Program-made: the position numbers and the translations under genes
Part shown: piece by piece, positions 21,148-64,000 of the stretch
Numbering within the stretch: the first letter of the stretch is position 1
Layout of the letters: each line of letters opens with the position of its first letter
Notes under the pieces: model-generated
Databases searched by the model: none
Seen by the model: the letters and a program-made list of their open reading frames with translations, nothing else
Told to the model about the DNA's origin: nothing
Origin: Escherichia phage vB_EcoM_E9
Strand: one strand, 5' to 3'
Sequence record: PP886229
Length of the DNA: 64,000 nucleotides

Positions 21148-21753
<606 letters not shown>

Positions 21754-21827
21754 TTAGTTGATTGTTAAGTTGTTTGTAAAGAACCCTCAACAGAAGACTC
21801 TTTAGAAACTTGGTAGATTTTTAATGT

Positions 21828-22095
21828 GGCTACTACCATCCACCCATACCTCACAACACCATGCCATACCCGACCGGACAAGACCAGACCCTACCGCGCC
21901 AGACCTCATTAAAAGACCCTCTTTAAAGACCTTTTAAAAAGGTAAGTCTCATTTTAATGTAGCTGAGACTAACTACCCATACCCTACTTTACCTTACCGT
22001 ACCGTACTTTACCCGACCGTACCGGACAATACTTAACCCTACCTCACCCGACCGGACATCACTTAAAAACCCTCTTAAAAGACTCTTAAGTGATG
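21828..22095. repeat. composite G-depleted pentamer-periodic repeat, copy pair 2
   Basis: Second tandem pair of the same family with (NNACC)n-like tracts (..taccgtaccgtactttacccgaccgtaccggac..), linker hairpin with compensatory stem changes, same conserved ends. Confidence 0.7.
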
Positions 22096-22125
22096 CTGGT
22101 GAGTACCCGTTGGTTTATGCTGCTC

Positions 22126-22153
22126 AGTATACTCACCAAATTTTCTATGTCAA
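22126..22153 (-). promoter_or_regulatory. sigma70-like promoter reading into the repeat region (minus strand)
   Basis: Minus-strand TTGACA-N16-TATACT just downstream of the ligase stop; transcript would carry the G-rich repeat as a leader of about 350 nt. Confidence 0.4.
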
Positions 22154-22159
22154 CAACTT

Positions 22160-23263
22160 TTATTCATAATCTCGTATAACCAGCCCAACAGGGAACTGTA
22201 AAGACCCCTTACGAGTCATCTTCTGGAACTGAACCGTTAAAGGCTTCCCGATAAACTCTTCAGGATGCTCAGCAAGATACTGTTTCTTCTCATGAGTAGT
22301 CTTCCATGAGACATCTACAAAGACGTTAGGAAGAGTCTCTACAACGAACTTGCCATGACCACGTTTATCGGTCTTTACACCAGTCACTTTAAACTCTTCA
22401 GTGTGCATCTTCTTGTGTTTAATCAAGAAGTATGAACGGTGACAACACTCGTAGAAGGAGTCTTCAGAGATTGAACGGTACATTGCACCTTCAAACTTAG
22501 CTTCAACCCACTTATCATGAGCTTCATCGAACTCTTCCCAAGAATTTACACGACGAGACTTAACAGGGACAACTTTACAGCCATCTCTAAAGTCATTCAA
22601 TGGTGAAGTCTCAATAATATCTCTACGCTCAGGCCACGTCTTAGTACTGTCACAGATATCGTACCAGTAAAACTTGAGCAAGTGTCTGTCAGGATTGTCT
22701 TCATTTTTAATCATAGAGACAATATCTTCTAAGTCCCACCCATGAGCATAAATCTCTCCATCAAATTCATCAACATCTTTGTGGAGCCTTAACATTGCCA
22801 TAATGTCAGGTATTAGTTCAGTAGGGATTTTGTAAACAGTATTTTCACGAGAATATGCTGTGAATACACTGCCAATACTTAAGTGCCTTGAAATCCTACA
22901 ACGGACACCATCAAGTTTCGGTTGAGCATCAGCAGGGAACTTCAGATACTTCGCATGACTAACCTTTGCAGCATCATGAGCAAGCTGTACACCTACCTTC
23001 TCAGTATTCTGTGCAGACTCTTTTGTGTAAGCATAACCTTTGCGGTCAACTTGTTTTTTATACTTAGCAGCAACTTCAAAGAGAGCTTGCTGTTCAGCGT
23101 TACGCTCGTTCTTTTTACCGATGTTTTTAGGTTCTGCTGTATACTCTTCAAACATCATCTTGCCATTTTCTTTACCGTAGGTTGTAATAACTTTGTCACC
23201 TACAGCGACACATGACCAGACGTTAAAAGAGCCATCTTTATTTTGTTTGTATAGAGTTGTCAT
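22160..23263 (-). CDS. ATP-dependent DNA ligase
   Basis: Adenylation motif ..PKLDGVRCRI.. (KxDG); start set to internal ATG at 23263 with RBS agagga, overlapping the upstream stop. Confidence 0.75.
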   Translation of the reverse strand: MTTLYKQNKDGSFNVWSCVAVGDKVITTYGKENGKMMFEEYTAEPKNIGKKNERNAEQQALFEVAAKYKKQVDRKGYAYTKESAQNTEKVGVQLAHDAAKVSHAKYLKFPADAQPKLDGVRCRISRHLSIGSVFTAYSRENTVYKIPTELIPDIMAMLRLHKDVDEFDGEIYAHGWDLEDIVSMIKNEDNPDRHLLKFYWYDICDSTKTWPERRDIIETSPLNDFRDGCKVVPVKSRRVNSWEEFDEAHDKWVEAKFEGAMYRSISEDSFYECCHRSYFLIKHKKMHTEEFKVTGVKTDKRGHGKFVVETLPNVFVDVSWKTTHEKKQYLAEHPEEFIGKPLTVQFQKMTRKGSLQFPVGLVIRDYE

Positions 23264-23264
23264 T

Positions 23265-23456
23265 TTATTCCTCTGAGTGATACCAAGTGTTGCAAGCATT
23301 ACATGCGTAAAGCTCTAAGTCATTTTTATCTGGTTTATGAAAACAGTTTGCTCCGCAGTGGCAACGAAACGGCTTTCCACCAACTGTCAGGATGAAAGAT
23401 TGAACCTTTCCATCAGGAGTTCGTACAGCATTTTTATGCTTATCTTCTTTGTTCAT
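23265..23456 (-). CDS. small zinc-ribbon protein
   Basis: 63 aa with CHC...C and CNAC Cys pairs. Confidence 0.35.
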   Translation of the reverse strand: MNKEDKHKNAVRTPDGKVQSFILTVGGKPFRCHCGANCFHKPDKNDLELYACNACNTWYHSEE

Positions 23457-62660: not shown

Positions 62661-62909
62661 ATGGCTACTATCCGCGCAACTGTTAACGAATTCGGCTTTT
62701 GCTCTCTGGATGTTAAATTTGACCTTGTAGGTACTGATAACGCCTTTGAGATGGTGAAAGGTCTTATCAATCAGACCATAAAAGACTATAAACCTTCTGA
62801 TGAGTTCTGGGAGGAAACAAAACAGGAAGTTCTTACGCATGGTCACACTTATCACTATTGGGGAGAAAAAATCGTCTCCCTGTACTACGACAAAGAAGGC
62901 ACTAACTAA
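62661..62909 (+). CDS. early small protein E13
   Basis: 82 aa; last gene before a terminator and a long non-coding region. Confidence 0.5.
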   Translation: MATIRATVNEFGFCSLDVKFDLVGTDNAFEMVKGLINQTIKDYKPSDEFWEETKQEVLTHGHTYHYWGEKIVSLYYDKEGTN

Positions 62910-62947
62910 ACGCCGCAACGGGGCTAAATAGCCCCAGATACCTTTAC

Positions 62948-62972
62948 AGCCCCTTAAATGGGGCTTTTTTAC
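62948..62972 (+). terminator. rho-independent terminator closing the early gene array
   Basis: AGCCCC-ttaaat-GGGGCT followed by TTTTTT; preceded by hairpin GGGGCTaaatAGCCCC. Confidence 0.6.
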
Positions 62973-63009
62973 GTCTTATCAAAGCTCTATACAATCCCTT
63001 TCCTTCCCT

Positions 63010-63065
63010 TTCCAGAATCTATCCCACTAATTCGACAGAATCTATCCCACTAATTCGACAGAATC
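63010..63065. repeat. tandem direct repeat cagaatctatcccactaattcga (2.5 copies)
   Basis: Two perfect 25 nt units plus a partial third. Confidence 0.6.
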
Positions 63066-63359
63066 TATCTCGTACCTTAAAAGCAATAACTCTATAGCTT
63101 ACTCTATAGCCCCTTATCAAATCAACTTAAATAAAAGCCAATAACCCCCAGAAAGGGGATGGCCCATTTAAACGCTCTATAAAGCTCTATAACAGCCTTA
63201 TCAACCTAACTTAAGGGATTGCATTAACCCACTCTAAAAAGCCCTTTATAAAGCTTCCTATAGCCTCAAAAGAATCTTATAAGGGTGTAAGCTTTATCAT
63301 CTCGTTAGCTATCTTGTGAATAACTCAATAACCCTTGATAGTCTCTAAAAAGTATGTTA

Positions 63360-64000
63360 TAGGGGCTGTTAAGTTACTTTGAAGTTACGTAAAAGAGGCT
63401 ACAAAGTTACGTAAATGCTAGCCCCCTTAACATTCTCTTAACAATTTCTTAACAATCCCTACATAGTTATGCTTGTTAGAGACTTGTTAGCCCCTTGTTA
63501 AATCTCTGTTAAGACCACGTAAAAGCCTTGTAAGAGTCTTTAGCATAGCCTTTAAAGCCTCTGTAAAGCCCTATAAAGAGGTGTCTACATAGTTGGGGTG
63601 TAATTACTAGGAAGAGACTTAAAAGAGCTTACAAAGAGCTATAGAGAACTTTTAAGAGGTATGTTTAGAGAATCACTAAGAAAGAGAGGGAACTATAGAC
63701 CAAGAGATAGTGACCATGTTAATAGCTTGTTAAAAAGATTAAACACTTGTTAGGAATTTGTTAATTATCTTAACAAAATAACTCTTAAAAATTAACTTGT
63801 TAGCTCTTATTAGTCATCTGTTAAGACTCTGTAAAACCTATGTATCAACTGTTAAGAAACTGTTACACCCTTGTTAGCTCTGTTAAGAATCTGTTAAGAC
63901 CTCTGAAGAGATGTTAAGAGGTTGTAAGAACTGTTAAGAGATTGTTAAGGATATTTTAAAATTTTGCAAAGGGGATGTTACAGGGATGTTAAGGGCTACC
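63360..64000. repeat. array of YTGTTARG motifs, helically phased at the 3' end
   Basis: At least 15 copies of (c/t)tgtta(a/g)g(a); from about 63849 to 63945 ten copies recur every 9-11 bp; no ORF of 60 aa or more; array runs to the window edge. Confidence 0.6.

Follow-up and report, generated by a model that had tools for sequence, protein, structure and literature searches.

The window analysed here is a stretch of 64,000 nucleotides from Escherichia phage vB_EcoM_E9 (sequence record PP886229; one strand, 5' to 3'). At its right end the rightward genes give way to a non-coding junction region. The last rightward gene before the junction occupies 62661-62909, and after position 62931 the ORF list, which extends to base 64000, contains no ORF of at least 60 aa, the largest having 30-33 aa; the original prediction was right in this respect. 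Small 'hypothetical proteins' are annotated here in some records, but relatives differ in this region by indels of 10, 11 and 22 bp, which contradict them. A coding reading was rejected, because these indels disrupt any frame and no ORF exceeds 33 aa. The following features were recognised (DTR, direct terminal repeat; units and cores refer to the TGTTAAG motif described below).

62948-62975, plus strand: rho-independent terminator with a 6-bp G+C-rich stem followed by a T-run; it ends the rightward gene array.
62976-63418: unique non-coding region before the DTR (pre-DTR), with a C-rich top strand, GC skew down to -0.48 and CTCTATA-type repeats.
63381-63417: two copies of AAGTTACGTAAA, 22 bp apart, immediately outside the left DTR edge, each containing the palindrome TTACGTAA.
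63421-64000: predicted right-end copy of the DTR, 580 bp, boundaries accurate to +/- 2 nt.
63424-63455, minus strand: three inverted TGTTAAG units (CTTAACA on the plus strand), period 11, beginning 6 nt inside the left DTR edge.
63472-63514, plus strand: four forward units (TGTTAG, TGTTAG, TGTTAA, TGTTAAG), period 11.
63520-63712: central part of the DTR, free of TGTTAAG cores and still periodic at about 11 bp, with AGAGCTTAnAA-type units.
63715-63780, plus strand: clustered cores, four of them forward and one inverted.
63796-63950, plus strand: main array, helically phased, with about 15 units of the consensus YTGTTAAGA and a period of 10.3-11 bp.
63950-63972: AT-rich tract followed by TTTTGCAAAGG (GATATTTTAAAATTTTGCAAAGG), conserved in three genera.
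63973-64000, plus strand: the last two units (TGTTACA, TGTTAAG), with the right cut site, ...GGGCTACC.

In complete relatives, the junction forms a non-coding gap of about 1.65 kb with converging gene arrays on either side, each capped by a terminator. AYO145A carries an annotated terminator at the position matching window 62948-62975. The repeat family of the pre-DTR region depends on the genus, being CTCTATA in Felixounavirus and Suspvirus and CTTCTAA (at least 11 copies) in Kolesnikvirus, where the CTTCTAA stretch was seen before the DTR in M7 and phi63_307. The AAGTTACGTAAA pair is kept in Felixounavirus relatives (UAB_69 is short of one copy through an 11-bp deletion), and Kolesnikvirus M7 has TTTACGCTATGG at the matching place. 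TATAGAG, the reverse complement of CTCTATA, reappears after the DTR in AYO145A. Positions 63013-63069, within the pre-DTR region, consist of a 23-bp tandem duplication of CAGAATCTATCCCACTAATTCGA in 2.5 copies, 100% identical; it is probably of recent origin, since it was not found at the equivalent place in AYO145A, Felix O1 and SUSP1.

The sole Rfam match (E = 0.57) lies outside the array and no credible structured RNA was found; sigma-70-like promoter matches were weak and at chance level (5 against 3.4 expected). Neither the IHF consensus nor Chi sites were found at the junction region, and the only exact match to a DnaA box, TTATTCACA at 63315, is located outside the array.

Next, we compared the junction with related records. 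More than 250 records of Felixounavirus (Felix O1-like) phages match the region with 80-95% identity. The record of vB_EcoM_D4 opens (bases 1-581) and closes with one and the same 581-bp sequence, which in both copies can be aligned to window 63421-64000 (93%), the alignment stopping precisely at the final base of the window, ...GGGCTACC. The D4 termini were determined as direct terminal repeats by PhageTerm (PMC11737134). In UAB_69, a repeat_region annotated as 'DTR' maps to window 63419-64000 plus 2 nt past the window. Four records (CRP22, NBEco005, NBSal004 and D4) start at GCCCCCTTAACA, the equivalent of window position 64000 is the end or the start of D4, I14.1, ECP2307, NBEco004, NBEco005, NBSal004 and GE_vB_7A, and many records start or stop within the junction gap. 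The features named 'repeat_region' in Danish phage records were considered as DTRs and rejected, being merely short local repeats.

By homology, the stretch 63421-64000 can be assigned with high confidence as the right-end copy of the Felixounavirus DTR, an identity that the original prediction had missed. Record ends and the repeats of D4 and UAB_69 coincide with the window edge, and therefore this edge is to be read as a genome end and not as an arbitrary cut; with high confidence, again by homology, the virion DNA is predicted to end physically, on the right, at the last base of the window. The coincidence of repeat boundaries with genome termini that marks a DTR in Ounavirinae would thus be carried over to the window from its homologues. 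Only one copy of the repeat is present in the window, which is what the final 64 kb of an ~88-kb genome should contain. In concatemers, a single copy would lie within the 1.65-kb gap, predicted to be transcriptionally silent, between the converging terminator-capped arrays.

The DTR of Felix O1-like phages as such is already published and annotated. That of UAB_Phi87 (608 bp) was mapped by Bal31 digestion and run-off sequencing (PMC4837284) in the same laboratory as UAB_69, and that of Ro111lw has 613 bp (PMC6454146). Together with the repeats of D4 (581 bp) and M7 (444 bp), they are homologous to the repeat of the window, share its boundary bases and occupy the same position between two converging terminal gene arrays; we see no difference in kind. 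The papers reporting these repeats (PMC4837284, PMC6454146, PMC11737134) give the repeat length only and do not describe the heptamer array. A search of the Felix O1, Felixounavirus and Ounavirinae literature, and a motif search, likewise found no description of the array, of its orientation rule or of the conserved cut-site flanks.

The repeat is densely filled with copies of a short core, TGTTA(A/G). Between 63360 and 64000 the core occurs 23 times (19 on the plus and 4 on the minus strand), that is 36 per kb compared to 2.0 per kb in the remaining window; 22 of the copies lie within 63421-64000 (38 per kb versus 2 per kb elsewhere), and, aligned with one another, they yield YTGTTAAGA as the consensus, the next T following after 11 nt. 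The longer motif YTGTTARG is less frequent than the original prediction had stated: instead of at least 15 copies, 63360-64000 contains 12 literal ones (9 on the plus and 3 on the minus strand). The whole window has 34, against 14.6 +/- 3.6 expected.

Ten units form a run, starting at 63850, 63861, 63872, 63881, 63892, 63902, 63912, 63922, 63932 and 63943, with spacings of 11, 11, 9, 11, 10, 10, 10, 10 and 11 bp. The predicted spacing of 9-11 bp is thereby borne out, but exact TGTTAAG is found in only six of the ten copies, the other four being degenerate (TGTTACA, TGTTAGC, TCTGAAG and TTGTAAG). Nor is the run confined to the last 100 bp, where it had been placed; it lies 50-150 bp from the window end, the 11-bp register is carried on via 63954, 63965, 63976 and 63987 up to the final base, and phasing spans the whole 580 bp. 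Tandem Repeats Finder reported 11-bp arrays at 63426-63457, 63472-63500, 63549-63578, 63612-63640, 63847-63949 and 63972-63995. The orientation of the units flips at about 63456-63472.

Autocorrelation of 63421-64000 gave z = 5.4 at lag 10 and z = 9.2 at lag 11, with more peaks at 20-22 and 31; a coding control displayed no such periodic signal, and the junction stretch has the top lag-10/11 autocorrelation of the whole window. The core positions themselves are best fitted by a period of 10.3 bp (R = 0.79; 99.9th percentile of random positions, 0.71). The helical phasing, from which cooperative binding on one face of DNA had been suggested, is evidently real.

The array is framed on the left by the predicted cut site TA/GCCCCC and on the right by GGGCTACC/AA-GCAGATATACA. 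In relatives, AA-GCAGATATACA comes next after the right cut and is retained from genus to genus; conservation also extends to the bases at each cut site and immediately outside it. Units start 6 nt inside the left cut and stop 7 nt inside the right one, the array adjoining the cleavage sites as would be expected of a terminase recognition site; the two edges differ by 4 nt in the spacing between core and cut. The ends of CRP22, NBEco005, NBSal004 and D4 correspond to G 63421 and C 64000, those of D4 alone being documented as read-based. The DTR annotation of UAB_69, a run-off-based source, and the ends of the M7 record, presumably run-off-sequenced, lie 2 nt further out at both edges (TAGCCCCC... 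and ...CTACCAA), and the record of Roscha1 starts 4 nt inside the M7 start. The 2-nt discrepancy may reflect short overhangs or an artefact of the methods.

The edges of the repeat form an imperfect inverted repeat in the window (63424-63443 versus 63976-63995, 80% complementary), with a mirror-symmetry score of 11, a value reached by one of 500 shuffles (3.3 +/- 1.5 in shuffles). We rejected mirror-symmetric cut sites as a conserved requirement, because the symmetry is significant in the window only, being weak in SUSP1 and absent in M7.

We then compared the layout of the junction in Felixounavirus, Suspvirus (SUSP1) and Kolesnikvirus from Erwinia and Cronobacter hosts (M7, Roscha1 and phi63_307). 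A common order was found. The terminator is followed by the C-rich pre-DTR region (470-570 bp, with its genus-specific repeat), the left cut site, two or three inverted TTAACA units, forward TGTTAAG arrays and ATATTTTAAAATTTTGCAAAGG; then come about 28 bp with two more units, the right cut site, G(C/T)AGATATACA, an AT-rich 40-mer, more forward TGTTAAG clusters and, finally, the terminator of the leftward genes. M7, with an exact DTR of 444 bp, is laid out as in Felixounavirus. All three genera combine inverted units at the left edge with forward ones at the right, the inverted ones having been seen in SUSP1, M7, phi63_307 and Roscha1, and the whole AYO145A junction contains 26 forward versus 4 inverted units (p = 6e-5). 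In each of the three genera TGTTAA is the commonest hexamer of the DTR, whereas the flanking repeat motif depends on the genus; in M7, the DTR has 36 cores per kb compared to 0.3 per kb in its flanks.

Sequence conservation follows the cores. With BLAST, the region of Erwinia Kolesnikvirus phages is alignable to the window only over 63887-63972, that is the main array. In the alignment of the window with M7, core columns are 96% and spacer columns 45% identical (Fisher p = 3e-9), a difference inflated by the aligner, which anchors on the repeated cores. Indels within the arrays of relatives measure 10, 11 or 22 bp, as in 63472-63514, where whole units of 11 bp are inserted or deleted; the core-free centre of the DTR tolerates 1-bp indels and insertions of 49 or 71 bp. 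As a result of comparison among close relatives, DTR length was found to vary from 569 to 694 bp. Retention of the core across genera, orientation bias and unit-length indels are signals which suggest that the cores are under selection, although slippage alone, without selection, could yield the unit-length indels. A 22-bp insert carrying the palindrome AATTGGTATTGTTACCAATCCC was noticed in UAB_69, ekra, NBSal004 and humlepung, around window 63773-63798 and ~63856; its position in the humlepung array is unlike that in UAB_69.

What might the array be for? The interpretation we prefer, with a probability of roughly 55%, is that it is a pacB-like binding array which places the terminase for two staggered nicks, in the manner of T7. 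The cores would be bound by a phage protein that recognises DNA, be it the terminase itself or a so far overlooked equivalent of the small terminase, loading cooperatively along one face of the helix, and the array would take the role that pacB has in T3 and T7. The outward-pointing units (three inverted at the left; two plus about fifteen forward at the right) would direct the nuclease to two fixed positions. If it nicked opposite strands there, about 580 nt from one another, strand-displacement synthesis (3'-extension) would then duplicate the repeat, and each packaged genome would receive the repeat at both ends. A short-DTR scheme of this kind, in which nicks and extension duplicate the repeat, is summarised in PMC5557969.

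A packaging site was among the candidates of the original prediction, which might have failed if genome termini mapped elsewhere. In relatives the termini fall exactly on this stretch (63419/63421 and 64000), and this part of the proposal is supported; the small terminase that was to bind the site is not recognisable. PHROGs and Pfam were used to scan the five ORFs that precede the repeat and, in D4, the first ORF at the left end and two located upstream of the large terminase gene (TerL). Neither in the ORFs flanking the repeat nor in the two upstream of TerL was a small terminase (TerS) or DNA-binding family found, the output consisting of families of unknown function and DUF7217 only. Nor do the terminase genes lie downstream, where the original prediction had proposed to look for them; in D4, some 17 kb separate TerL from the left end. 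No small terminase has been recognised in the Felix O1-like group (PMC4837284).

The array had also been thought to continue possibly beyond the window edge. It does not do so in the mature molecule, where this edge is predicted to be the physical end of virion DNA, but more copies follow the repeat in the concatemer: about 600 bp after it are likewise built of units of ~10.3-11 bp with the core YTGTTAAGA. In its boldest form, the proposal would make the ~30 phased units over ~1.2 kb an undescribed kind of packaging signal for a group of myoviruses with no recognisable small terminase, coated by a phage protein into a one-face filament or solenoid which measures the two nicks ~580 bp apart, and this structure might also serve end protection or initiation of replication; we regard this extension as speculative and rather unlikely.

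The same array could instead be a replication origin, with the TGTTAAG units as iterons for a phage initiator and the flanking AT-rich tracts as sites of unwinding. Phased direct repeats do stand on both sides of AT-rich tracts, namely 63950-63965 and, in the concatemer, a 40-mer with 90% A+T about 70 bp past the repeat (AYO145A); the junction is transcriptionally silent, GC skew changes its sign at about 63450-63500, and there is the DnaA-box match at 63315. This match, however, is the sole one and falls outside the array, no IHF site accompanies it, and transcription converges at the junction instead of diverging from it. The units of 11 bp with a 7-bp core are shorter than classical iterons of 17-22 bp, and their orientation and position follow the two cut sites. 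No initiator, helicase or primase gene adjoins the junction, the flanking ORFs having no recognisable domain and belonging to PHROG families of unknown function only; replication genes are found elsewhere, e.g. the ligase at window 22160-23299, and it is there, in the replication module beside the ligase gene, that another repeat-rich gap sits. An origin at the junction is thus improbable. The third candidate put forward originally was a regulator or partition-like site. The array may be a regulator site; as to partition, the flanks contain no partition genes, and a ParR/parC-type centromere was rejected on this ground.

Two further explanations dispense with DNA cutting. The units may be a scaffold for some other DNA-binding protein, engaged in protection of ends from RecBCD, in control of DNA entry similar to the first-step transfer of T5, in silencing of the junction or in recombination between DTRs into concatemers. 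Conserved cores, phasing on one face and orientation bias imply a protein without saying which, and the arrays reach ~600 bp past the repeat at the left genome end, more than a cleavage signal needs. The PHROGs and Pfam scans of flanking ORFs gave no candidate for such a protein, though, Chi-like or known host-factor sites are absent, and inverted units at the left cut together with forward units at the right cut are explained most simply by formation of termini. We consider a scaffold of this sort unlikely, and the sequence by itself would not separate it from the packaging interpretation. The other explanation, a neutral minisatellite in which slippage has enlarged an 11-bp tandem repeat that lacks any sequence-specific role, within a spacer under no demand other than to stay non-coding, would account for the whole-unit indels and for the variation of DTR length from 569 to 694 bp among close relatives, and perfect 11-12-bp tandem arrays with TTAACA do occur in unrelated AT-rich viral contigs. 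Yet the 6-7-bp core has persisted in three genera with spacers and flanks so diverged that BLAST does not detect them, the units are degenerate outside the core, with no recent homogenisation, and their orientation relative to the termini is conserved. Because of the conservation of the core across genera, above all, we hold this explanation to be very unlikely.

The packaging interpretation invites comparison with known systems. The T7/T3 junction is reported to comprise the terminal repeat, pacB, mature-end sites and, flanking the T7 repeat, the arrays SRL and SRR. The E9 junction resembles it in fixed ends, in a short exact repeat made from a single concatemer copy, in a recognition element inside the repeat near its right end and in arrays of ~7-bp repeats beside the repeat. 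It differs in that the E9 phage belongs to the myoviruses and has an unrelated terminase, for which no small subunit was recognised. Furthermore, the repeat is here 3.6 times longer and itself composed of phased units, the heptamer sequence is different, and there is no sign of involvement of transcription or of a phage RNA polymerase.

Short repeated sites are used in other systems too. In the pac site of P1, seven TGATCA/G hexamers in two clusters flank the cut and are bound by PacA; P1 uses headful packaging, begun at a single imprecise cut, and Dam methylation of its hexamers acts as a switch. The E9 array shares with it short repeated cores clustered on either side of the region cut by terminase, whereas two precise cuts, ~30 units and absence of GATC set it apart. 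Lambda cosB (R1-R3 and IHF) and SPP1 pacL/pacR contain boxes for the small terminase, only 2-4 in number and 7-16 bp in length, beside a defined TerS gene, and give cohesive ends (lambda) or headful packaging (SPP1) with no DTR. The likeness lies in repeated phased boxes by the nicking site, which in those phages bend or wrap DNA. In parC of plasmid R1, ten 11-bp iterons are bound cooperatively by ParR. Here the direct repeats of 11 bp in clusters are similar, and parC forms a protein superstructure on one face; the E9 phage, in contrast, is lytic and has no par operon, and the likeness is architectural only.

The array leaves general principles unchanged. What it offers, a phased array spanning genera together with two conserved cut sites, is a testable candidate for a packaging signal; if confirmed, it could serve as a bait for the missing DNA-recognition protein and as a cis element for packageable vectors. 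Felix O1 is a classic phage of diagnostics and biocontrol, and several hundred of its relatives have been sequenced. For Felixounavirus assemblies, the cut sites provide a rule of orienting and trimming, with the start at GCCCCCTTAACA and the end at GGGCTACC.

Upon examination of the remaining window, a second repeat-rich gap was noticed. It spans about 410 bp (21750-22160) between two minus-strand ORFs, 21148-21750 of unknown function and 22160-23299, which encodes an ATP-dependent DNA ligase. The gap is dense with short C/A-rich repeats (CCATACC, TACCGTACC and three copies of CCGACCGGACA) bracketed by two copies of 'accctctt(t)aaaaga', and the lag-10/11 autocorrelation of windows starting at 21501-21801 is second only to that of the junction region. 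We regard this part of the replication module as a candidate for an origin or for a regulatory array. GATC does not occur in the whole window (0 sites compared to 180 +/- 12 expected), and its absence has already been reported for the genus, in VpaE1 (PMC4690856) and Alf5 (PMC5477317).

When viral contigs were scanned for three TGTTAA cores in phase, contigs of Ounavirinae turned up along with unrelated AT-rich contigs, which are uninformative unless set against a control. The latter (including IMGVR_UViG_3300028581_000120) bear perfect tandem arrays of 11-12 bp with a TTAACA/TGTTAA core; one has such an array at the very start of its sequence, and another has an AT-rich stretch of ~90 bp with forward and inverted arrays on its two sides. 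These arrays could be due to chance or could be analogous protein-binding arrays. Finally, a DTR junction of the Felix O1 type was found with 93.7% identity at 136315-136614 of GU169904.1, the 147-kb record of Staphylococcus phage SA1. Its occurrence in a record named after a Staphylococcus phage suggests that this record is a chimeric or mixed assembly.
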